From positions 22,616 to 86,615 of the forward strand of contig DASWOB010000095.1 in the NCBI GenBank assembly GCA_036398925.1: a stretch of DNA of 64,000 nt, written 5' to 3'. The notes under the pieces are model-generated. The model was not told where the DNA came from. It worked only from the letters and a program-made list of their open reading frames with translations, and made no database searches. The position numbers were made by a program, and so were the translations under genes. Position 1 is the stretch's first letter. Each line of letters starts with the position of its first letter. Source of the stretch: Thermoanaerobaculia bacterium. GTDB taxonomy: Bacteria; Acidobacteriota; Thermoanaerobaculia; Gp7-AA8. This document shows positions 9,924-59,365 of this stretch, one piece after another.

Positions 9924-10511
9924 CTAGTCGCGCTTGGAGATGACCTGATCGACCAGCCCGTATTCGAGCGCCTGCGGCGCCTGCAGGATGTAGTCGCGGT
10001 CGGTGTCTTTGTCGATCTTTTCGATCGGCTGGCCGGTGTGGTTGGCCAGGATGTTGTTGAGCCGCGCCTTCATCTGCATGATGTCTTTGGCGTGGATGTC
10101 GATCTCGCTGGCCTGCCCGCCGAGACCGTGCATGAGCGGCTGGTGGATCAGGACGCGCGAGTTCGGGAGGCAGTAGCGCTTCCCTTTCGCTCCGGCGGCG
10201 AGCAGCACCGCGGCCATCGAGGCCGCCTGGCCGATGCAGATCGTGGCGATGTCGGGCTTCACGTACTGCATGGTGTCGTAGATGGCGAGGCCGGCCGTGA
10301 TCGAGCCGCCCGGCGAGTTGATGTACACGGAAATGTCCTTCTCGGGGTTTTCGGCCTCGAGGAAGAGTAGCTGGGCGATGAGCAGGTTCGAGACGTTGTC
10401 GTCGATCGGCTGGCCGAGAAAGATGACATTGTCTTTGAGCAGCCGCGAGTAGATGTCGTAGGCGCGCTCGCCTCGCGACGTCTGCTCGACGACCATCGGG
10501 ATGAGTACCAT
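9924..10511 (-). CDS. clpP: ATP-dependent Clp protease proteolytic subunit ClpP
   Basis: [21 protein letters not shown], ...GQAASMAA..., catalytic-triad context. 195 aa. Confidence 0.95.
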
Positions 10512-10540
10512 CGGTTTGCGGTCTCCTTTACGGGCGCAGT

Positions 10541-11815
10541 CTATCCCCGCCGCCGCGATTCGCGCAGCACCAGCTCGATGGCCCGGTCCTGCGCGAGCGA
10601 GGAGCGCAGCGCCTCGTAACCGCCGTCATGCCGGAGGTGATGCTTCACGTCGGCAAAGTCGCGCCCCTGCTCGCTGGCGGCCTTGCGGATCTCGGCGTCG
10701 ACCTCGACGTCGCTGATCTGGATGTTCTCCGCCTTGGCGATCGCCTCGAGAATCAGCGAGCGCTTGACCCGCTTGATCGCCTCAGGGCGGAACTCTTCGC
10801 CGACCTTGCGCCAGTCGATCTCCGCTTTCTGGATGTCGACGCCCTGGCCGGCCAGGTAGCGCGCGTAGTTGTTGAGCGACTTCCCCAGCTCGTCTTCGAC
10901 CAGCGTCTCCGGCACCTCGAATTCGTGCGCGGCGAGCAGCTGATCGCCGAGCTGCGCGCGCTTGAGGCGCATCGCTTCGGCTTCCCGGTGCCTCCGGATG
11001 TCGGCGGCGATCGTCTCGCGCATCTTCTCGACCGAGTCCCAGCCGCCGACGCTGTTCGCGAACGCGTCATCGACTTCCGGCTTCTCCTGCACGCGGATCT
11101 CTTTGAGGGTCACGTCGTGGTGGATGGTCTTGCCGCGCCACGCTTCCTGCTGCGCGTCGTCGCCGTAGTCCTTGTCGAACGACACTGACTCGCCGGCTTT
11201 CCTGCCGGCCAGCGCGTCGTGCAGTTCCATGAGCGGCGTCTCTTCGCCCATCTTGAAATGGCCGGAGTCGGTCTTGACCTCGCCGTCGGGCGTGGTGGAG
11301 GTGATGTCGATGATCGCGAAATCGCCTTCCTCGAGACCGCGCTCCGTCTCGAGGCGGTAGTGGCTGGCCTGATCGCGGAGGCGCTCGATCATCGCGTCGA
11401 TGTCGGTGTCGCTCACTTCGATCGTCGGCTCGTCGATCTCGAGCCCCTTGTAGTCGCGCAGCTCGATGACCGGCTTGATCTCGAAAAGGGCCTTGTACTT
11501 GATCGGCGCCCCCTCGATGAACGGATCGAGGTGGTCGAGGTGCGGATCGCCGATCGGCTCCAGCCCCTTCTCGCGCATCACCTGGCGGAAGCTCTCGGCC
11601 AGCACGCGCTGCACGACCTCATCCTGGATCTCTTTGGCGAAACGGTTGCGGATCACGCTCGACGGCACCTTGCCGGGACGAAAGCCCGGCACGTTCGCCT
11701 GGCGGGCGAACTCGCTGGTGACGCGGCGCGACTCGCTGGAGATCAGGTCCGCCGGGATCTCGACTTCGACGGACTTCTGGATGGACGAAATGTCTTCGAA
11801 ATTAATGACGGTCAT
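10541..11815 (-). CDS. tig: trigger factor (ribosome-associated peptidyl-prolyl isomerase chaperone)
   Basis: Start taken at [11 protein letters not shown] (ATG 11815). The longer track ORF would run into the tRNA-Leu gene. FKBP-type PPIase region and the conserved tig-clpP-clpX-lon synteny support the call. Confidence 0.9.
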
Positions 11816-21677: not shown

Positions 21678-23211
21678 CGACCGCCTCGACCTTCTTCTTC
21701 CGCAGCTTCTTCCACTGCAGCCGCACGTTGTCGAGCTCCGCTTTCAACCAGAACTTCACGCCCCGTCCTACCATCTGCAGCGGCGCGAGATTGAGGTTGA
21801 AGTACGCCTTAATGCGGCGGCCGTCGTTGTACTTGCCACCCTCGCCGACGGCGCGGCGCGCCTCCGCGATCGCCTTGAAGCGGCGGTTGTACGTCCGCAT
21901 CATGTGGTAGCTGACGAAGGCCGGCTTCGGCCCGAGCACAGGCATCCAGAAGAACTTCTTCATGAAGCGATACGCCGGGATGACCACGAACATGTAGTAC
22001 TGCGCCGTGTCGATGAGAAACGCGGCGCTCAGGAGATCCGACTCTCCCATGTAGTAGTACTTGTCCTTGTACGCGGCGCGGAAGAAGCGCCAGTAGGAGC
22101 GGACGAAGGTGGTGTTGTGCTCCGCGATCGCCGGCGCCACATCCTTCCCCATCGCGTCCATCTTGACGATCAGCATCGTTGCCTCGGCCGTGAACGAGGC
22201 GTGATCGAGGCCGGGCGAGTAGTACGGATCGAGAAACGCCGCCGCATCGCCCAGCAACGCCCACCCTTTCCCCATGTACTGCTTCGTGGCATAGGCGAGG
22301 TGCGAGTAGAAGCGGAGGTCGTCGAGCCGCGGCTCCGCGCCTTCGAGGATCTCGGCCAGCGAGGGGATGTTCCGGAGGAAGGCGACAAAGTCTTCCGCCC
22401 GGTTCTTGCTGTGATGCAGGTCGACCAGACGCTTGTCGAAGACCACGCCGATGCTGGTCTCGCCGTTGCCGAGGGGGATCACCCAGATCCAGTAGCCGTA
22501 GCCGACGTAGTGATTGGTGCCGAGGCGGCGCGACCCGATGTTACGGGAGGCCAGGTCGCTCTTCGCCGCGATGTCGTCGATGTGGCGGACGTTCTTCCAG
22601 CGGCACCAGATGGCGGCGGTGGGATGCTCGTCGTTCCGCTCGATCAGATTCAGCTTGCGGCCGATGAAGTTCACCCGGCCGCTCGCGTCGAGCAGCCAGC
22701 GGCAGGTGAGCTCGCGCGTCTCGCCGTTCACCTCGACCTTCACCGTATTGTTGAAGTCGGCGAAGGTGACGTCGAGCGCTTTCGCCGGACGCCAGAGCTC
22801 GGCGCCCTCGGCAACAGCGGTCGCGAGCAGATGCTCGTCGAGCGCATCGCGCCTCAGCTGGAAGGACGGAACCGCGCTGCGGAGGAAGCCGCCTGCCTCG
22901 GTGGCGTTCTCGTGGCCCGTCACCTTCGCGTTCGAGAACCAGTAACGGAGCCCCTCTTTCGGGAGGTGCTCGCTCTCCAGGTGCTGCCACATCCTGAGGC
23001 GGCGGGTGAGGAACATCGCCGACATCTCGGTGGTGGCCTCACCGACCTTCTCATCGAAGGCGGTGGCCTTCTCGATGATCAGCACCCGGAGGTCGGGGCA
23101 CTCGCGGCGCAGCAGGATGGCCGTCGAGGCGCCGCTGAAGGCCCCTCCGAGAATGATGACGTCGTACCGGTCGGACATTCGGCCATCCAAACGCATAGGA
23201 CGGCTGTTCAT
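21649..23211 (-). CDS. flavin-dependent halogenase (tryptophan-halogenase family, PF04820-like)
   Basis: N-terminal FAD GxGxxG (ILGGAFSG). KVGEATTE (GxGEAT-like). Diagnostic WxWxIP (GYWIWVIPLGNG) and C-terminal FxxPxxSxG (FLDPYYSPG). Confidence 0.75.
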   Translation of the reverse strand: MNSRPMRLDGRMSDRYDVIILGGAFSGASTAILLRRECPDLRVLIIEKATAFDEKVGEATTEMSAMFLTRRLRMWQHLESEHLPKEGLRYWFSNAKVTGHENATEAGGFLRSAVPSFQLRRDALDEHLLATAVAEGAELWRPAKALDVTFADFNNTVKVEVNGETRELTCRWLLDASGRVNFIGRKLNLIERNDEHPTAAIWCRWKNVRHIDDIAAKSDLASRNIGSRRLGTNHYVGYGYWIWVIPLGNGETSIGVVFDKRLVDLHHSKNRAEDFVAFLRNIPSLAEILEGAEPRLDDLRFYSHLAYATKQYMGKGWALLGDAAAFLDPYYSPGLDHASFTAEATMLIVKMDAMGKDVAPAIAEHNTTFVRSYWRFFRAAYKDKYYYMGESDLLSAAFLIDTAQYYMFVVIPAYRFMKKFFWMPVLGPKPAFVSYHMMRTYNRRFKAIAEARRAVGEGGKYNDGRRIKAYFNLNLAPLQMVGRGVKFWLKAELDNVRLQWKKLRKKKVEAVATASPAPRA

Positions 23212-37552: not shown

Positions 37553-37640
37553 GATTCGGAAGCGATGAGTGATGAGAGATGAGCGATGAACACGCTCCGC
37601 GTCAGTCCCGTTCATCGTTCATCTCTCATCGTTCATCGCT
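37553..37640. repeat. family-A heptamer hairpin repeat inside the gvp operon (between gvpF and gvpS)
   Basis: gcgatgagtgatgagagatgagcgatgaac-acgctccgcgtcagtcccg-ttcatcgttcatctctcatcgttcatcgctcg. Confidence 0.7.
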
Positions 37641-38405
37641 CGTTCCTGCAAAGCTGTACGGCGGCCACGGCCCCGTCACCCCCACCACCACCCCCTCCGG
37701 CTCGTAGCGGGCCAGCAGTTCATCCTGCAATGCCTGCAACGCCGGTTCCTCGTCGCGGTTGATGAGGACGTTGATCTGCGGGAAGGCGCCGCCGCGGCGT
37801 TCGCGGGTCTCGGCGATCGACTCGCACTTCAGGCGGCCGAGGAGCTCGCGTTCGACTTCGGCCAGCAGGTCGTGCTCGGCCTGGCGCGCGGCGCTTTTCT
37901 TCTGCTCTTCGAGTTTCTTGCGCAGCAGGAACGCTTTGCCGGCGGCAGCCGATTCGATCTCCGTTTGCAATGCACGCAGCGAGGCCACGCGGGTGACGAT
38001 CGAGGCGTTGAAGCGCTCCGGGTCGATCTCCAGGCGCAGCGTCCACTCCTGCTTACCGTCCAAACGGTCGAGCGTCTTCGCCAGCAGCTCGCGGTTCTCG
38101 TGCAGGTAGGCGCGCAGCGCTTCGGCGCTGCTGAAGAGGGTGAAGGCGCGCAGCGGGACGATGGCGGTCTGCTTCATCAGCTCCGCAACGACGGCCTGGT
38201 GGCGGTAGCCGATCGCGCCGAGCCATTCCAGGTCGTTGGCGCGCTGGTCGATGACCGCCTGCGAGAACGCCTCTTCGGCGACGGGAGTGAACACGGCGGC
38301 GATGTCGTCGATCGAGACACTATCGAAGCGCCGCGAGCCATCGACCGCCTCGACGTCGGCTGTCGCGGGCTGGCGCGTCACGGCGTAGACGTAAAGCACG
38401 CTCAC
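37626..38405 (-). CDS. gvpF: gas vesicle protein GvpF/GvpL family
   Basis: MSVLYVYAVTR... N-terminus and VTGPWPPYSFAG C-terminal motif typical of GvpF. 259 aa. Confidence 0.75.
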   Translation of the reverse strand: MSVLYVYAVTRQPATADVEAVDGSRRFDSVSIDDIAAVFTPVAEEAFSQAVIDQRANDLEWLGAIGYRHQAVVAELMKQTAIVPLRAFTLFSSAEALRAYLHENRELLAKTLDRLDGKQEWTLRLEIDPERFNASIVTRVASLRALQTEIESAAAGKAFLLRKKLEEQKKSAARQAEHDLLAEVERELLGRLKCESIAETRERRGGAFPQINVLINRDEEPALQALQDELLARYEPEGVVVGVTGPWPPYSFAGTSDER

Positions 38406-38411
38406 GTTGCG

Positions 38412-40196
38412 TCAGTGTATCGGAACGAGCGTCGCCAGTTCGGCGAGCCTGGTGACCGGCTCGTCGCGGCGCTCGATCAGCATCAGGTTCTCGCCGAGTG
38501 GTGCGAGCGCCGCGAGCTCACCGGCGCGCGTCCCACGATCGCAGGCGCATTCGTTTTCGGGAGTGACGTAGTTGGCCACGATGCCCCCCACCCGCAGGCC
38601 GCGCTCTTCGATGGCGGCGATGAGTCGTCGCGTTTCGGCGACGACGATCGGCTCCGGGCGGGTGACCACGATGACGGTGGTGCGCTCCGACTTCATCGTG
38701 GCGTCGAGCTCCTTGAAGGCGCGCGAGGCGTTGACCAGCTCCTCGCCGAGCGAGCCGGGGGCGACGAGATCGCGATAGTTGAGGAGGATGCGCATCAGCT
38801 CGCGCACCCACTCGCCGGCGCTCTTCGGGAGGTCGAGCAGGCGGAGGAAATGACCGGTTGGCGCGGTGTCGACGAGCACCTGCGTCTCTTCGCCGATCAG
38901 GTCTGCGAGGCGGGTGATGGCGAAGATCTCGTCCGCACCCGGCGGGGCGACGTCGAGCAAGCGCCGCATGGCCTCTGTGTCGTGGCTCAGCGAGAAACCG
39001 CCCGGGGCGAGCCCTTCCACGGCCCGCTCGATCTCGCCGCCGAGGGACTGGCGGAAACGGCGCCACTTCGCGCGGGTGTCGATGGTCTCTACGGTGAGGT
39101 TGGGGGGCGGCGATTCGTGGGCGAAGACGTCGCGGAGGGAGTGGGCGGGGTCGACGGAAATGAGGGTGTATTTCTGCCGCGGGTTTGCTTGCGCGAGCTG
39201 CAGGGCGATGGAGGACGAGGTGGTGGTCTTGCCGACGCCGCCTTTGCCGGCGAAGAAGGTGAGCTTCGTGTGGTGTGGGATCCCAGCCCACCCCTGGGGG
39301 ACGGATACGGTGGAAGCCGACACCACACCAGCTTCTTCGCAGAACCTTGCGAGGTCCGCGACCGGCACGCCCACCTTCTCCCGCGCCTCCGCGTCTCGCT
39401 GCGCACGACGCTCGTCCAGCGGGCAATCCACCTTCAGCACCGCGCGATTCAGCACCGCGAACGGGACGTCGATCCCCTCCTCCCGCACCTCCGCGATCAG
39501 GCGGACGGTCTGCTCGACCACCCATGGCTCGCTGAGGAGCACCGGGATGAAGGCCGCCCGGGCCGGGTCGTTGAGCAGTTCCCGGCGCGCCTTCGCCTGG
39601 TCCGCAAAGTCGTAGATGTAGGTGTCGAGCGCATCGCGCACGTCGCGGCGGGTGAACTGCCGGACCATGGCCCGATGCTTCTCCTGCATGGCGTCGAGCG
39701 CCTCCGCGAACTGCGCGAAGTGCTCGGCGGAGGAGAGCATCCGCAGCGTGTGACCGGTCGGCGCGGTATCGACGACGATCAGCGCATCGGGATTGGCCTC
39801 GGCCAGCTCGCCGATGCGCATCCACGACATCAGCTCGTCGATCCCCGGCAGCGAGAGCTCGAAGAAGCGGCGCAGCTCCTCGCGATCGAGGTACGTCCCG
39901 CGATCGCCGATCTCCAGCAGGTTCGCCAGGTTCTCCGAGAGAAAGCGCGAGTAGAGCGTCTCCGCGTCGACCGATTCGACCGTCAGGGATGCCGGCAGAG
40001 CCAGGTCGCCGAGGTTCGAAGCGGGGTCGGTGGTGAAGAGGATGACCCGGCGCGTCTCGGCAAAATGCAGCGCCGCACGCGAAGAGAGGGTGGTTTTGCC
40101 GACGCCGCCTTTGCCGCCGAAAAGAACAACTCTTCGGGTGGACAGCGATGAGAGATGAGAGATGAGCGATGAGCGTCCGCCCGGTTCATCGCTCAT
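38412..40196 (-). CDS. ArsA/GET3-family anion-transporting ATPase, tandem two-domain (two deviant Walker A + two DTAPTGH motifs), embedded in gvp operon
   Basis: VLFGGKGGVGKTT...DTAPTGHTLRML (half 1) and TFFAGKGGVGKTT...DTAPTGHFLRLL (half 2). C-terminal CxC (ENECACD). The only in-frame ATG lies within the family-A repeat at 40196, so the start is uncertain. Confidence 0.8.
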   Translation of the reverse strand: MSDEPGGRSSLISHLSSLSTRRVVLFGGKGGVGKTTLSSRAALHFAETRRVILFTTDPASNLGDLALPASLTVESVDAETLYSRFLSENLANLLEIGDRGTYLDREELRRFFELSLPGIDELMSWMRIGELAEANPDALIVVDTAPTGHTLRMLSSAEHFAQFAEALDAMQEKHRAMVRQFTRRDVRDALDTYIYDFADQAKARRELLNDPARAAFIPVLLSEPWVVEQTVRLIAEVREEGIDVPFAVLNRAVLKVDCPLDERRAQRDAEAREKVGVPVADLARFCEEAGVVSASTVSVPQGWAGIPHHTKLTFFAGKGGVGKTTTSSSIALQLAQANPRQKYTLISVDPAHSLRDVFAHESPPPNLTVETIDTRAKWRRFRQSLGGEIERAVEGLAPGGFSLSHDTEAMRRLLDVAPPGADEIFAITRLADLIGEETQVLVDTAPTGHFLRLLDLPKSAGEWVRELMRILLNYRDLVAPGSLGEELVNASRAFKELDATMKSERTTVIVVTRPEPIVVAETRRLIAAIEERGLRVGGIVANYVTPENECACDRGTRAGELAALAPLGENLMLIERRDEPVTRLAELATLVPIH

Positions 40197-40232
40197 CTCT
40201 CATCTCTCATCTCTCATCTCTCGACGATCATC
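40141..40232. repeat. family-A heptamer hairpin repeat between gvpG and the ArsA-like gene
   Basis: cgatgagagatgagagatgagcgatgagcg-tccgcccgg-ttcatcgctcatctctcatctctcatctctcatctctcg. Confidence 0.7.
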
Positions 40233-45228: not shown

Positions 45229-45312
45229 CGAGCGATGAGCGATGAGAGATGAGCGATGAACTGTAGCTGCCGCTCGCACGTTCATCGTTCATCTCTCATC
45301 GTTCATCGTTCG
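45229..45312. repeat. family-A heptamer hairpin repeat between co-directional genes
   Basis: gagcgatgagcgatgagagatgagcgatgaac-tgtagctgccgctcgcac-gttcatcgttcatctctcatcgttcatcgttcgg. Confidence 0.7.
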
Positions 45313-45358
45313 GCGGAAGCCAGTCCCCATCCCCGCCGCGCGTAGAATCCGCGCCACC

Positions 45359-54280: not shown

Positions 54281-55186
54281 CTACCGGCGCAGACGCCGCA
54301 CCAGCTGGTGCAGCTTGTCGAGCCCTTCCCGCCGCTCGTTGTCGTTCCCCGTCAGCAGATCCTCGATGAGCTGCAGCTCCGTGTACAGCTCGAGATCGGT
54401 AGCCGCGTCGCGCTGCGGAGTCACCGTAACCGGAGGCGGCGCGGACGGACGGACCGGCGTCGCGAGCACGGCCGGGTTGAGCGAATCACGCAGCCGCGCG
54501 GCCATCGCCCGAATGGATGGTACGTCACTGCTTCCGAGCGCTCGCTGGATCGCTTTCGCGCTGGTGACGGCGTCGGCGTAGGGACTGTTCGGACTGTCGA
54601 CGATGCGCGCCTGCACGAGCGACACGACGATGTTGCCGTAGCCGCCCTTCTCTTCGGCGCGCGCGTGGATGCGCACCGTGGCCTGACGGGCCACGACCGG
54701 GATGTCGATCGGACGGACCTCGCCCGGCTGCAGCAGCGCCTTCACCTCGAGGACCTGCGTTTCCGAGCGCTGGGACCCCTGCGGCAGATATTCGATCTCG
54801 ACGCGTTCGAGCCAGACCGGGCGATTCTTCGCCACCATCATCCGGCGCGAGGGCGACTCGATGATCACACGATAGATGAACGCGCCGCGCGTCTCGACGG
54901 TCTGCATCGAATCGCCGCGCGGCTGGATCGAAAAGTCGTGCGACGTGCGGCCCGCCTCGAAGCGCTCGTAGGAGGCGTACTCGTACGTCCCGTCGGCGCG
55001 CGGCACGCGCAGCCATTCGATGTCCTGGGTGATGATGCGCTGCAGCAGATCGACCGGCAGATCGCGCTTGCTCGCTTCCGCCACGCGGTCGAGCACCATC
55101 GCATCGGCCGCCACGCGAGCCGCCGGATCCTGCGCGAAAAGAGGAAGGGCGAGCGCAATGGCGATCGCCAGCAAGGTCCGTTTCAT
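54281..55186 (-). CDS. hypothetical secreted protein (301 aa)
   Basis: Signal peptide MKRTLLAIAIALALPLFAQ. No family recognised. It overlaps deoB by 4 nt. Confidence 0.45.
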   Translation of the reverse strand: MKRTLLAIAIALALPLFAQDPAARVAADAMVLDRVAEASKRDLPVDLLQRIITQDIEWLRVPRADGTYEYASYERFEAGRTSHDFSIQPRGDSMQTVETRGAFIYRVIIESPSRRMMVAKNRPVWLERVEIEYLPQGSQRSETQVLEVKALLQPGEVRPIDIPVVARQATVRIHARAEEKGGYGNIVVSLVQARIVDSPNSPYADAVTSAKAIQRALGSSDVPSIRAMAARLRDSLNPAVLATPVRPSAPPPVTVTPQRDAATDLELYTELQLIEDLLTGNDNERREGLDKLHQLVRRLRR

Positions 55187-56358
55187 TCTTTCACTCCCAG
55201 TTCCGGCAGCACGCTGCGGCCGGCGATGCCATCACGCGACAGATCGAGGTACTCGCAGATCGTGGCGCCAAGGTCGGCGAAGGTGCTGCGCGTGCCGAGC
55301 GGCTTCGCCTCGCGGATGCGCGGCCCCGCCACGAGCAGCGGAACGTATTCACGCGTGTGATCGGTCGAGACGTCGGTCGGATCGCAACCGTGATCGGCGG
55401 TGATGAAGAGCAGGTCGTCCCGGCGCAGCGAATCGAGCAGCGCCGCGAGCTCGCCATCGAACGTCTCCAGCGCCTTCGCATATCCCGGCGCGTCATTGCG
55501 ATGGCCGTACTTGGAATCGAAATCGACCAGGTTCGTGAAGATGAAATCGGCGTCCGACTCGCGGATCAGATCGATCGTCTTGCGCATTCCGTCCGAGTTC
55601 GACTCGGTGCGGATCTCCTGACCGATCCCCACGCCGTCGAAGATGTCGGAAATCTTCCCCAGCCCGATCACCTGCCGCCCGGCGTCGTGCGCGCGCTCGA
55701 CCACCGTCTCGCCGGTCGGCCGCACCGAAAAGTCCTTCCGGTTCGCCGTGCGCTTGAACTGACCCCTGCCCGTACCGACGAACGGCCGCGCGATGATCCG
55801 GCCGATGTTGTGCTCCCCGCGCATCAGCTCCCGCGCGATCGCACAGATCCGCCAGAGCTCCTCGACCGGGATCACCTCCTCGTGCGCCGCCACCTGGAAC
55901 ACCGAATCGCCCGAGGTGTAGACGATCGGAGCGCCGCTGCGCATGTGCTCCTCACCCAGCTCATCGAGGATCACCGTACCGGAGGCGGGCTTGTTCCCCA
56001 GCGTCTTCCGCCCGATGCGCCGCTCGTACTCGTCCATCACGTCGGGCGGAAAGCCGTCCGGATACGTGCGGAACGGATCCGTCACCACCAGCCCCATCAT
56101 TTCCCAATGCCCGGTGGTCGTGTCCTTCCCCGCGCTGACCTCCGCCATCCGCCCGTACGCGCTGACCGGGGTGTCGGGACTGGCCGGGGTCGGAAGCGTA
56201 TGCAACAGCCCGATGCGGGTGAGGGTGGGAAGGCTCGGATGCTGGCTATCGAGGATGTGGCCGAGGGTATTCGAGCCCTCGTCGCCGAAGTCTTTGGCGT
56301 CGGGAAGCTCACCGACGCCGAGAGAGTCGCAGACGAGAGTGATCACTCTTCTTTTCAT
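55183..56358 (-). CDS. deoB: phosphopentomutase
   Basis: Start at MKRRVITLVCDSLGVGELPDA (ATG 56358). The track N-terminus MTVHRSSFIVHRS is repeat-derived. Alkaline-phosphatase-superfamily metal ligands (FTNLVDFDSKYGHRND). Confidence 0.88.
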   Translation of the reverse strand: MKRRVITLVCDSLGVGELPDAKDFGDEGSNTLGHILDSQHPSLPTLTRIGLLHTLPTPASPDTPVSAYGRMAEVSAGKDTTTGHWEMMGLVVTDPFRTYPDGFPPDVMDEYERRIGRKTLGNKPASGTVILDELGEEHMRSGAPIVYTSGDSVFQVAAHEEVIPVEELWRICAIARELMRGEHNIGRIIARPFVGTGRGQFKRTANRKDFSVRPTGETVVERAHDAGRQVIGLGKISDIFDGVGIGQEIRTESNSDGMRKTIDLIRESDADFIFTNLVDFDSKYGHRNDAPGYAKALETFDGELAALLDSLRRDDLLFITADHGCDPTDVSTDHTREYVPLLVAGPRIREAKPLGTRSTFADLGATICEYLDLSRDGIAGRSVLPELGVKE

Positions 56359-56393
56359 CGAGCGATGAACGATGAACGATGAACGATGAACAG

Positions 56394-56747
56394 TCAATTC
56401 TTGCGACGGCGCTTGATCGTGCGAACAGAGGCGACGCCCATCGCGATCAACTCGTCCGCTTCCTGCATCAACGGCTGTAGCCTGGCGGCGGGCACGATCT
56501 CACCCTCGATCAGCAGCTCCATCCAGTACAGGCTTTCATCGAGCTCCTGGAGCGCCGTTTCGATCTTACTGATCATCTCGGCATCAGAACGGGAGCGAAA
56601 CGCCTCGCGGCAATGCGCGCCGGGAGACGTTCCAGACCGCAGCAACTGCATCCGGATTACGCCCGCCGCATCGTTTCGGGGCAATGTCGCACACACGCGT
56701 ATGACTCGAATTGCGAACGCTTTCGAACGATCGCGAAGCGTGTTCAT
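56394..56747 (-). CDS. four-helix-bundle protein of the 23S rRNA intervening-sequence-associated family (TIGR02436-like)
   Basis: 117 aa. AFAIRVIRVC...LPRNDAAGVIRMQLLRSGTSPGAHCREA...EMISKIETALQELDESLYWMELL matches the family profile. The gene lies exactly between the two arms of a family-A repeat, and the ATG is within the right arm. Confidence 0.7.
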   Translation of the reverse strand: MNTLRDRSKAFAIRVIRVCATLPRNDAAGVIRMQLLRSGTSPGAHCREAFRSRSDAEMISKIETALQELDESLYWMELLIEGEIVPAARLQPLMQEADELIAMGVASVRTIKRRRKN

Positions 56748-56771
56748 CGCTCATCTCTCATCGTTCATCGC

Positions 56772-58085
56772 TCAAACGATCAGCTCATGCACCAGCGGCC
56801 TCTTCGCCGGCTCCTCGTCTCCGATCTCCACGAATGCCGCAAACCGCTCGCGCAGTTCGCTCGCGTCGCGCTCGCGCTCTCCCAGCTGAATCTGGGCGAT
56901 GACGTCGCCTGCCTTCACCTCGTCGCCGACGTTGCGTACGAAGAGCACGCCGGCGGCGTAGTCGATCACATCGTCCGCTTTCTTGCGGCCGGCGCCGAGG
57001 TCGACGGTGAACATGCCGGCTTGATACGTATCGATCTTCGTCACGAAGCCGCTGCGGTCCGCCTTCACGTCGACGGTGGAGCGCGGCGTCGGGAGCAGCG
57101 CGTAGTTGTCGACCACCTCGGGGTCGCCTCCCTGGGCGGCGATCCATTTGCGGGTCTGCTCGAGGGCACGGCCGGAGGCGAGTGCCTCATCGAGAGCGCT
57201 GCGTGCGGAATCGGCGTCGAAGCGGCCCGACATGACCAGGATGCGCTCCCCCTGCGCCCGGGTGACTTCCACGAGATCGGCGGGACCGCGGCCTTTGAGC
57301 GCCTCGAAGGTCTCGATGATCTCGTTGGAGTTGCCGGCCGCAATACCGAGCGGCCGGTCCATGTCGGTGATCAGCGCTTCGACGCGCGTACCGGAGCCGG
57401 CCGCGGCGGCGATCAGGCTCTGCGCCAGCGCTTTTGAATCCTGATAGAGCCGCATGAAGGCGCCGCTGCCGGTTTTGACGTCGAGGATCAGCGCGGAGGC
57501 GCCCATGGCCAGCTTCTTCGACATGATCGAGGCGGTGATGAGCGGGAGCGACTCGACGGTGCCGGTGACGTCGCGCAGCGCGTAGACCTTCTTGTCGGCC
57601 GGCGCGATCCCCTCGGTGGACGTCGAGATGACGCAGCCGGCGTCCGCCACGCTCTGTTCGAACTCGGCGCGGGAAAGACGGGCGTTGAAGCGGGGGATTG
57701 CTTCCAGCTTGTCGAGCGTGCCGCCGGTGTGCCCGAGGCCGCGACCGGAAAGCATTCCGACTTTCACGCCGCAGGAGGCGACCCACGGCGCGAGGACCAG
57801 CGAGACCTTGTCGCCGACGCCGCCGGTGGAGTGCTTGTCGGCGATGAATTCGTAGCTGTCGCGCAGGTGCCACTGCTCGCCGGAGCGCAGCATCGCCTGC
57901 GTCAGCGTCGCCATCTCGGCCGCGGTCATGCCGTTGATGGCAATGGCCATCAGCAGCGCCGACATCTGGTAGTCGGGAATCGTTCCGCGCGTGAATCCTT
58001 CGACGAAGAACTCGATCTCACGAGTCTCCAGCGGCCCGCCGCGGCGCTTGCGGTTGAGGAGCTCGTAGACGCTGTAGTCGGCCAT
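56772..58085 (-). CDS. deoA: thymidine/pyrimidine-nucleoside phosphorylase
   Basis: HSTGGVGDKVSLVLAPWVASCG, SGRGLGHTGGTLDKLEAIPRF. 437 aa. Confidence 0.9.
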   Translation of the reverse strand: MADYSVYELLNRKRRGGPLETREIEFFVEGFTRGTIPDYQMSALLMAIAINGMTAAEMATLTQAMLRSGEQWHLRDSYEFIADKHSTGGVGDKVSLVLAPWVASCGVKVGMLSGRGLGHTGGTLDKLEAIPRFNARLSRAEFEQSVADAGCVISTSTEGIAPADKKVYALRDVTGTVESLPLITASIMSKKLAMGASALILDVKTGSGAFMRLYQDSKALAQSLIAAAAGSGTRVEALITDMDRPLGIAAGNSNEIIETFEALKGRGPADLVEVTRAQGERILVMSGRFDADSARSALDEALASGRALEQTRKWIAAQGGDPEVVDNYALLPTPRSTVDVKADRSGFVTKIDTYQAGMFTVDLGAGRKKADDVIDYAAGVLFVRNVGDEVKAGDVIAQIQLGERERDASELRERFAAFVEIGDEEPAKRPLVHELIV

Positions 58086-58095
58086 AGGGGGGCCA

Positions 58096-58206
58096 TTCTA
58101 CGGCGAGCGATGAGAGATCAAGGATGAACGATGAGAGATGAGAGATGAGCGATGAACACGGCGGATCCGCGTCGTTCATCGCTCATCGCTCATCTCTCAT
58201 CGTTCG
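58096..58206. repeat. family-A heptamer hairpin repeat in divergent intergenic region (deoA / queC)
   Basis: gcgatgagagatcaaggatgaacgatgagagatgagagatgagcgatgaac-acggcggatccgcgtc-gttcatcgctcatcgctcatctctcatcgttcg. Confidence 0.7.
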
Positions 58207-58226
58207 TTGTTACGATGCCCCCCGCC

Positions 58227-58898
58227 ATGCAACGCGCAGTAATTCTTCTTTCCGGCGGCCTCGACTCCGCCACCGTCCTGGCGATGGCAAAGTCCGAGGG
58301 GCGGGTCTGTCACGCGCTGTCGATCACCTATGGACAGCGGCACGGCGTGGAGCTCGAAGCGGCGCGGCGGGTGGCGGAGGCGATCGGCGTCGAGGAGCAC
58401 GACGTGCACGCGCTCGACCTGCGCGTCTTCGGGGCGAGCGCGCTCACGAGCGACATCGCGGTCCCGAAAGACGCCGTCGGCGCGCCGGGCATTCCGGTCA
58501 CGTACGTGCCGGCGCGCAACACGATCTTTCTCTCGCTCGCCGTCGGATTCGCCGAAGCGCGCGAGGCGGCGGAGATCTGGATCGGCGTCAATGCGCTCGA
58601 TTACTCCGGCTATCCCGACTGCCGGCCGGAGTTCATCGACGCGTTCCAGGAGGTCATCCTCAAAGGAACGCGCAGCGGCATCGAGCGCGGTGAGCCGCGT
58701 CTCGTCGCGCCGCTACTGCACATGACCAAGGCGGAGATCATCCGCCGCGGAATCGAGCTCGGCGTCGATTATTCGATCACGCACTCGTGCTATGACCCTG
58801 ACCGCTCCGGTGCCGCGTGCGGACATTGCGATTCGTGTCTGCTGCGGCGGAAAGGATTCGAGGAGGCGGGCGTGCCCGATCCGACTCGCTACGCATGA
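58227..58898 (+). CDS. queC: 7-cyano-7-deazaguanine synthase
   Basis: Start at [16 protein letters not shown] (PP-loop SGGxDS). C-terminal zinc Cys cluster [17 protein letters not shown]. Confidence 0.9.
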
Positions 58899-59365
58899 TC
58901 CACATCGAAGGATTCGAGGTTCGCGAGCTCTCCGACGACGACCAGCCGTCCATCGACGATCTCTTCGCTCGCTGCGCCGATCTCATGGCCGTCGATCCGC
59001 ACGCCACGCCCGATCGCGTGCTGCACCACCTGCCCGCCGACGCGGTCCCCGAGCGCGAGCACGCCTTCGGCCTCTGGCGCGACGGAAAGCTCCTCGGCAT
59101 CCTGGCCATGCTCTTCGGCTACCGCGAGGAAAAGGACTGGTGGATCGGCCTGCTGATGCTCGACCCTTCCGTGCGCGGGCAGGGCATCGGCCACGCCGCG
59201 CTCGAAGAAGCCCTGCGTCTGGCGCGGGAGTCCAACGTCGCCAAAGCGATGTGGCTCGTGGTCGCATTCGACAACACGCGCGGGCAGAAATTCTGGTTCC
59301 GCGAGGGCTTCGTCGAGCGCGGCCGCACCGAGACCCATCTCATGCTTTCGCGCGCGATAGACTGA
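58895..59365 (+). CDS. GNAT-family N-acetyltransferase
   Basis: Start ATG overlaps the queC stop (ATGA). Acetyl-CoA binding motif [14 protein letters not shown]. Confidence 0.7.

Follow-up and report, generated by a model that had tools for sequence, protein, structure and literature searches.

In Coxiella burnetii, the intervening sequence (IVS) of 23S rRNA is 428 nt long, and its terminal repeats form a 28-bp stem that is cut by RNase III and that encloses an open reading frame (ORF) for S23p, a protein of the PF05635 family (PMC4990558). Immediately upstream of the ATG of this ORF are two to three tandem GACAGAT heptamers, the number of which varies among strains, and IVSs with an S23p ORF are also found in Leptospira, Brucella and Xanthomonas (PMC4990558). 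The Coxiella IVS has been termed selfish by the authors, who cite an older proposal that the ORF serves mobility (PMC4990558). The present report deals with a cassette found in a 64,000-nt stretch of DNA (the window; positions 22,616 to 86,615 of contig DASWOB010000095.1, assembly GCA_036398925.1) from a metagenome-assembled genome of Thermoanaerobaculia (Acidobacteriota). In this cassette, a gene for a 117-aa four-helix-bundle protein of the same family is placed between two inverted arrays of a 7-nt repeat (heptad) in the spacer of deoA and deoB, and such a gene-between-inverted-heptads cassette recurs in at least six bacterial phyla. To our knowledge, the function of the S23/IVS protein family has been open since the ORFs were found in 23S rRNA IVSs in the early 1990s, and we know of no accepted cause for the over-representation of heptameric repeats in bacterial intergenic DNA.

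Several heptameric repeats have been described. The GGGAATC heptamer of Xanthomonas is described as a quadruplex-forming repeat with 186 arrays and 70 inverted pairs in X. campestris, and Nostoc has GGGGAYT (PMC4692102), while TAACTGA is the heptamer of Beggiatoaceae and cyanobacteria (PMC4679880). In these papers the repeats are read as G-quadruplexes or translational regulators, and PF05635/S23 genes are not mentioned (PMC4692102, PMC4679880). Like those of the window, such intergenic repeats are tandem heptads, often in convergent inverted pairs, and lie near start codons; they are transcribed and vary in length between strains. In the REPIN-RAYT system, inverted copies of a repeat flank a gene, and further copies of this repeat are scattered between genes as short hairpins; the repeat and the gene are matched in each genome. 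Diversity-generating retroelements have an accessory protein, Avd, which forms a basic barrel of five subunits and binds a structured RNA element (PDB 4DWL, 8UB7); the Pfam family most often matched by Avd-like proteins of such retroelements is PF05635. The structural-genomics proteins BT_0352 (PDB 2RLD) and XCC0516 (PDB 2GSC) are labelled 'unknown function'; in the literature searched, their genomic setting has not been linked to heptad inverted repeats.

The window cassette shares with the 23S rRNA IVS a PF05635 ORF inside terminal inverted repeats, a long stem (28 bp in Coxiella, about 33-38 bp as predicted in the window), tandem heptamers of variable copy number before the ATG, and apparent transcription as a part of the host unit from no promoter of its own. 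On the other hand, the Coxiella IVS is located in helix 45 of 23S rRNA, and IVSs are defined by a location in helix 25 or 45 of the 23S rRNA gene, whereas the window cassette is in the spacer of an mRNA operon. It also differs from the Coxiella IVS in the heptad, GATGARN instead of GACAGAT, in the intact ORF under apparent purifying selection and in the gene-less hairpin copies dispersed in the genome; RNase III cleavage is established for the Coxiella IVS and proposed for the window cassette. As regards insertion sequences and miniature inverted-repeat transposable elements, the cassette has inverted repeats, no direct repeat was readable at its borders, and a recognizable transposase is lacking. 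Because the cassette is neither in rRNA nor accompanied by a transposase, it is regarded as a variant of the IVS kind, which would work like an autonomous/non-autonomous repeat family.

Organization of the cassette in the deoA-deoB spacer

A repeat search of the window detected an inverted repeat with arms at 56360-56392 and 56741-56773, each 33 nt long, with 91% complementarity and a gap of 348 nt (Table 1). By direct reading of the sequence, three arm positions are non-Watson-Crick, two of which are G·U wobbles in the sense (minus-strand) RNA. Each arm is a run of the heptad GATGA[A/G]N (GATGARN) or its complement, with four to five heptads per array; the GATGARN array is located 5' of the gene on the coding strand and the complement array 3'. 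The 14-mer GATGAACGATGAAC occurs 26 times in the window with up to two mismatches, against an expectation of 0.6.

The 5' arm holds the deoA stop codon (56772-56774) as its first three bases and, at its other end, the ATG of the helix-bundle gene (56745-56747), which is inside the terminal heptad GTTCATC (56742-56748) and corresponds to the ATG of GATGAAC on the coding strand. The stop codon of the gene (56394-56396) is 2 nt from the 3' arm, and this arm ends 1 nt short of the deoB ATG (56356-56358). As the deoA stop and the deoB start directly abut the arms, the cassette constitutes the whole deoA-deoB spacer, and its orientation is the same as that of the operon. A preliminary description of this DNA, which had placed a TIGR02436-like gene of 117 aa between two complementary flanks in the deoB-deoA spacer, with its ATG in the right arm, agrees with these results and with the family matches given below and in Table 1, and the complementary pair was confirmed; only the left-arm start, which had been set at 56347, has to be corrected, since 56347-56359 is outside the repeat and includes the deoB start.

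Neither a sigma-70-type promoter nor an intrinsic terminator was detected by a consensus scan of 56200-57000, which is weak evidence because the consensus sequences are of the E. coli type. An Rfam scan of the window detected only two tRNAs, and no family was matched at the hairpins. The deoB start is likely the MKRRVITL at 56358, and a longer deoB ORF with a TTG start from 56397, which reads through the arm, is probably spurious; the NCBIfam match to deoB starts at residue 15-17 of this 404-aa ORF. ORF callers extend neighbouring genes through the arms because the heptads give TGA in all three frames of the purine-rich strand and no stop codon of any kind on the complement. Arm-extended N-termini are observed in the window for the ORF starts at 56397 and 58152, and also at 58018-58179; they include MTVHRSSFIVHRS (deoB) and a queC N-terminus. 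Read-through of heptads is a likely source of annotation errors.

Recurrence among bacterial phyla

In a scan with one genome per species, 80 loci (designated by L numbers) with homologues of 42-78% identity were obtained from Acidobacteriota, Planctomycetota, Chloroflexota, Cyanobacteria, Verrucomicrobiota and others. The 120 nt upstream of each gene was aligned to the reverse complement of the 120 nt downstream, and inverted flanks were scored at a threshold of >= 15. They were found in 53 of 78 homologues (68%) versus seven of 797 control ORFs of at least 100 aa from the same loci (0.9%), and of these seven control ORFs at least one (L054) is a PF05635 gene as well. Almost all arms are tandem heptads, the lag-7 identity being >= 0.7 in 46 of 54, and the purine-rich array is nearly always upstream on the coding strand. 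Homologue loci contain 167 arrays with a period of 7, compared with at most 12 for the periods 5, 6 and 8-11. The spacing of paired arrays is bimodal: 8-60 nt for those without a gene versus 350-800 nt for those with a gene inside. The heptad differs by lineage, including GATGAGN/GATGAAC, GGATGAA, GAATGCG, GATTGCG, GATTGCA, GATTTTG/A, GATTTAC, GAGTGAC, GAGATAC and GAAGTTA.

Flanking heptads were also predicted for Xanthomonas and were found upon testing: homologues of XCC0516 are encoded between accB and accC, with GGGAATC-type heptads upstream and their complement downstream. What is new for the GGGAATC repeats of Xanthomonas is that the arrays bracket an XCC0516-type gene at this site. Homologues exist on 29 plasmids, 13 of which are conjugative or mobilizable, and of two plasmid copies that were inspected, one has GGAGGTC heptads on its flanks and the other GATTTTA heptads. 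On a Gloeocapsa plasmid (L171, 1186-1554), the cassette is located between a DUF1156 gene and a Swt1-family HEPN gene, and on pNPUN01 of Nostoc punctiforme (L170, 1177-1632) it is located between tnsA and xisH/xisI; these two contexts are related to defence or mobile elements, in contrast to the housekeeping operons at other loci. In the literature searched, no statement was found that connects heptad inverted repeats outside rRNA with PF05635 or four-helix-bundle genes, which does not by itself prove that the link is unpublished.

The four-helix-bundle protein

The gene product belongs to the PF05635/TIGR02436 (S23/23S rRNA IVS protein) family, as it matches PF05635 with an E-value of 2.7e-14 (53.7 bits; cutoff 33.8) and TIGR02436 with an E-value of 8.4e-22 (77.4 bits; cutoff 24). 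These are its sole family matches, and no recognized nuclease or transposase family was matched. The protein is basic, its pI being 9.6, and its C-terminal tail is RRRK; the AlphaFold model gives four helices with a pLDDT of 95.6. BT_0352 and XCC0516 are homologous in both sequence and fold and are the nearest solved relatives: a profile from close homologues matches PDB 2RLD at an E-value of 1e-27, and the Foldseek TM scores are 0.85-0.92 for 2RLD and about 0.85 for 2GSC. The same fold is found in Avd (4DWL), with a TM score of about 0.8 and a sequence identity of only about 15%. Five chains are present in each of the 2RLD, 2GSC and 4DWL depositions, and by analogy the window protein is probably a pentamer, like BT_0352, XCC0516 and Avd.

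From dN/dS values of 0.04-0.33 against homologues for which dS could be estimated, dS being near saturation, the protein is judged to be under purifying selection. A HEPN RNase was considered by checking the Rx4-6H motif by eye and was rejected, the spacing of R37 and H45 being seven residues and canonical members having N in place of H45.

Protein-heptad pairing and turnover of sites

The protein and its arms behave as one unit. Among cross-phylum pairs, protein identity is inversely correlated with heptad distance (r = -0.51), and none of 1000 label permutations reached this r. Solo hairpins near a cassette share the heptad of that cassette with at most one mismatch in 9 of 21 cases, versus 5% of random pairings. 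L054 has a second PF05635 gene, a canonical one, whose arms are matched by a solo CAGTAGG hairpin of this locus.

Occupancy of the deoA-deoB spacer varies among relatives. When metagenomes were scanned with DeoB, about 45 loci were obtained in which DeoB is 80-86% identical to that of the window. The spacer is empty in L121 (20 nt) and L094 (57 nt), while solo hairpins of four heptad types are present in L102 (GGGATGA), L113 (GTTCGCG), L114 (GAGCACG) and L128 (GAGGTTC). Cassettes with three heptad types (GATGAAC, GGATGAA and GGGATGA) are present at ten loci, one of them frameshifted, and the spacers of some relatives hold other genes. In most spacers with a cassette, the arms are within a few bases of the deoA stop and the deoB start. 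The window protein is 76-78% identical to the copies located between queC and queE (L005, L006) versus 50-66% to the copies at its own site, which were taken from equally related genomes. These comparisons show gain, loss and relocation of the cassette.

Some individual loci have other features. In L110 (639-945), the helix-bundle gene in the deoA-deoB spacer is split over two frames as a pseudogene, with its GGGATGA arms intact. The deoA-deoB site of L131 (199-573, minus strand) has only the downstream arm and, where the helix-bundle gene would be, a coiled-coil ORF of 124 aa on the opposite strand, which starts with MNDER inside the arm and has only weak matches to Pfam coiled-coil families; this ORF could represent another kind of cargo or could have replaced the gene. 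In L006 (11041-11607), a host gene of the glyoxalase family (VOC) has a GATGAGC/GATGAAC array on one side and the complement of this array on the other, and a third array, which is short, is at the stop codon of the gene. Because the VOC gene of relatives overlaps queE by 4 nt, the arrays of L006 are taken to have been inserted on both sides of the host gene. At 10422-10553 and 11003-11284, L007 has beside the cassette a duplicated 5' fragment of deoB (residues 1-44) and a second, partial helix-bundle gene, followed by an intact deoB, an arrangement that suggests element-associated recombination or duplication. A non-heptad palindrome of ~93 nt (GTCTGGACTGCGCGAGC...GCAGTCCAGAC) is found just downstream of the deoA stop in L004 (2873-2965), where there is no cassette at the site. 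Upstream of deoB, L102, L114 and L128 share a conserved CCCTATAATC motif that resembles a -10 promoter element; the window is without the motif, and the arm abuts the deoB ATG. The window also has an ORF for a 182-aa GNAT acetyltransferase between queC and queE (58817-59365), and a 182-aa gene is located between deoB and deoA in L001 and L002 (1869-2417 in L002).

Strand and level of action

Both neighbours are co-oriented with the gene at 37 loci and antisense at five (binomial estimate about 4e-7). Arm mismatches in the sense strand are G·U in 42 cases versus A·C in 24 (p = 0.036), and in 44 of 65 elements the arms form their more stable duplex as sense RNA (Wilcoxon p = 0.004). In the minimum-free-energy fold of the full minus-strand segment of the window (-197 kcal/mol, z -4.35), the arms are paired over their full length to close off the ORF, and the deoA stop codon and the deoB AUG are in the lowest part of the stem. 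Co-orientation, the sense G·U bias and the stability of the sense duplex favour action of the element in the sense transcript.

Short hairpins without a gene

Outside the cassette, the window has five short hairpins of GATGARN heptads (H1-H5), the loops of which measure about 8-22 nt (Table 1); in the preliminary description, these repeats were called Family A and their loops were given as 10-25 nt. Their folds of about -50 to -66 kcal/mol are strong on either strand, and the strand preference is inconsistent: minus for H1, plus for H2 and H4, and neither for H3. By direct reading, the start of the H2 loop, ACGCTCCGCG, has 9 of 10 bases in common with the first codons of the helix-bundle gene after ATGAAC (ACGCTTCGCG). 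H5 is regarded as an insertion because the deoA|queC spacer, 141 nt in the window, is only 23-24 nt in the relatives L002 and L004. At 58083-58229, the palindrome of H5 extends imperfectly outward to both divergent start codons (CATAGGGGGGCCAT... / ...GATGCCCCCCGCCATG), and therefore the initiation regions of deoA and queC mirror each other at the hairpin base. In the source genome, heptad arrays occur at 12.5 per 100 kb.

An intrinsic terminator or a REP-like stabilizer was considered and rejected: the scan of 56200-57000 gave no terminator-like site, the stems measure 30-38 bp and lack a U tract, and one of them is in a divergent promoter region. A CRISPR array was also considered and rejected.

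Table 1. Positions in the window of the cassette, its host genes and the gene-less hairpins
Feature	Position	Strand	Evidence or description
5' (upstream) arm, in gene orientation	56741..56774	-	Coding strand reads TGAGCGATGAACGATGAGAGATGAGCGATGAACA; the minimum-free-energy fold pairs it with the 3' arm
Four-helix-bundle gene, 117 aa	56394..56747	-	PF05635 and TIGR02436 matches
3' (downstream) arm	56360..56392	-	Coding strand reads TGTTCATCGTTCATCGTTCATCGTTCATCGCTC; inverted repeat and fold
deoB, phosphopentomutase, downstream host gene	55183..56358	-	Family match, E 5.9e-156
deoA, thymidine/pyrimidine-nucleoside phosphorylase, upstream host gene	56772..58085	-	Family match, E 1.4e-156
Hairpin H1, GATGAGC type	31664..31739		Fold energy -52 kcal/mol (plus strand) and -61 kcal/mol (minus strand); z of about -9 to -10
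Hairpin H2	37566..37641		Heptad sequence and RNA fold
Hairpin H3, GATGAGA type	40144..40222		Heptad sequence and RNA fold
Hairpin H4	45230..45314		Heptad sequence and RNA fold
Hairpin H5, in the divergent deoA|queC spacer	58106..58207		Heptad sequence and RNA fold

Proposed mechanism and alternative explanations

The cassette is rather likely an IVS-type, turnover-prone element that is co-transcribed with its host operon and whose arms form a long stem. In this scheme, deoA, the cassette and deoB would be transcribed as one RNA, in which the arms would pair into a stem of ~33-38 bp that encloses the ORF and buries the ATG of the helix-bundle gene. The base of the stem would set the deoA stop codon opposite the deoB start codon, and, because they would face each other there, translational coupling of deoA and deoB would be preserved: the ribosome ending deoA would open the stem and keep deoB translation coupled. 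The stem resembles the RNase III substrate of 23S rRNA IVSs and by analogy may be cleaved in the same way. The basic and probably pentameric protein would most likely bind its own heptad arms or the stem, although the agreement between the ~five heptads of an arm and the five protomers is a numerical match only. The short hairpins would be gene-less members of the element family of the cassette; they would either acquire the gene or derive from the cassette by gene loss, no direction being implied.

The preliminary description had suggested that the hairpin repeats carry the helix-bundle gene as a module and that the protein is tied to the flanking structured RNA, on the model of the 23S rRNA IVS. 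The idea of a module is strongly supported by the excess of inverted flanks over control genes, by the co-variation of protein and heptad and by the variable occupancy of the deoA-deoB spacer. The tie to RNA has gained indirect support from co-orientation with neighbours and better arm pairing in the sense strand, and the likeness to the IVS is borne out by that of Coxiella, with its RNase III-cut stem, PF05635 ORF and tandem heptamers (PMC4990558). A conventional promoter together with a lack of relation to repeats elsewhere would have spoken otherwise; the E. coli-type scan of 56200-57000 gave no promoter, and the heptads recur at other loci.

Several observations weigh against the IVS-type scheme. 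The bias toward the sense strand is modest, and most arm mismatches are transversions. A role at the DNA level is possible, because the solo hairpins fold strongly on both strands and show no consistent strand preference. The start codon is outside the arm in about 60% of loci, and masking of the start codon is therefore not universal. Elements with 60-330 nt between the arms contain no gene remnants, family HMM scores being no better than those of random segments; as these intermediate elements show no remnants, the derivation of hairpins from the cassette has the H2 loop as its one piece of evidence. The ORF of the Coxiella IVS is decaying and apparently untranslated (PMC4990558), so that the protein is apparently not made there. 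Neither at H5 nor at the borders of the cassette was a target-site duplication readable; in relatives, the empty sites have diverged too far. The closest relatives of the window protein are all in the deoB-deoA-queC-queE neighbourhood, which suggests that the element has resided there for long and has hopped locally instead of transposing freely.

A DNA-level autonomous/non-autonomous system like REPIN-RAYT, in which the protein would recognize heptad hairpins as single-stranded or cruciform DNA and spread them, with the cassette as the 'master' copy and the short hairpins as dependants, is an unlikely explanation, yet the one that survives best after the IVS-type scheme. The layout fits, as the window gene is flanked by inverted copies of a repeat dispersed as hairpins, the solo hairpins share the heptad type of the resident cassette and are without strand preference, protein and heptad co-vary, and insertions are polymorphic. 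However, RAYT is an HUH/Y1 (IS200/IS605-like) transposase, whereas the window encodes a 117-aa helical bundle without a recognized nuclease or transposase match, and the arms consist of tandem heptads, not of one fixed REP sequence. Strong co-orientation and the sense-pairing bias lean toward RNA, no target-site duplication was seen, and several heptad families at a locus have no cognate gene nearby.

Somewhat less probable still is a domesticated host gene, whose product would be an RNA-binding regulator of the host, accompanied by REP-like hairpins acting in cis on RNA stability or translational coupling, with nothing mobile. Purifying selection on the protein, long residence in one Thermoanaerobaculia neighbourhood, arms that precisely abut the host stop and start codons, and cassettes within essential operons such as accB-accC speak for such a regulator. 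It is at odds with the relatives whose DeoB is 80-86% identical and which nevertheless have an empty spacer, solo hairpins or other heptad types, with the lower similarity of same-site copies than of different-site copies, and with the frameshifted copy in L110. Identical heptad types and related proteins are also found in different phyla and on conjugative plasmids. Finally, coincidence, either as a gene between independent half-hairpins, in a genome where heptad arrays are common, or as an Avd accessory gene of a diversity-generating retroelement, which the fold resembles, is highly improbable, given that inverted flanks are found in 68% of homologues versus 0.9% of control genes at the same loci, and that no reverse transcriptase, template or variable repeat is nearby in this housekeeping-operon context, the neighbours being deoA, deoB, queC, the GNAT gene and queE.

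Implications

The heptad arms have some practical consequences. They create spurious ORF extensions (SSLIAHRSS-type N-termini), they break assemblies, and they may pass for CRISPR-like arrays. A large CRISPR discovery screen includes '23S rRNA IVP' among the domains associated with CRISPR arrays (PMC10910872), and it may be speculated that heptad arrays and hairpins around PF05635 genes were picked up there as CRISPR-like repeats.

The cassette joins the puzzle of the 23S rRNA IVS with the unexplained excess of 7-base repeats in bacteria. As a tentative generalization, which we hold to be possible but on balance doubtful, PF05635 proteins and inverted heptad hairpins may form a widespread, unrecognized class of elements, in which a pentamer would be the heptad-binding factor that maintains or spreads the hairpins, with gene-carrying 'masters' and gene-less dependants; this would explain much of the heptamer excess as well as the origin of ORF-bearing 23S rRNA IVSs. 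By analogy with its relative Avd, the pentamer of such elements could act on RNA. Collectively, three separate literatures are linked, and the function of an orphan protein family of 30 years' standing is made directly testable in cultivable bacteria with solved structures, such as Xanthomonas with XCC0516 between accB and accC. The questions raised are whether the pentamer binds heptads, whether RNase III excises the cassette from operon mRNA, and whether the cassette affects expression of the essential genes that flank it.

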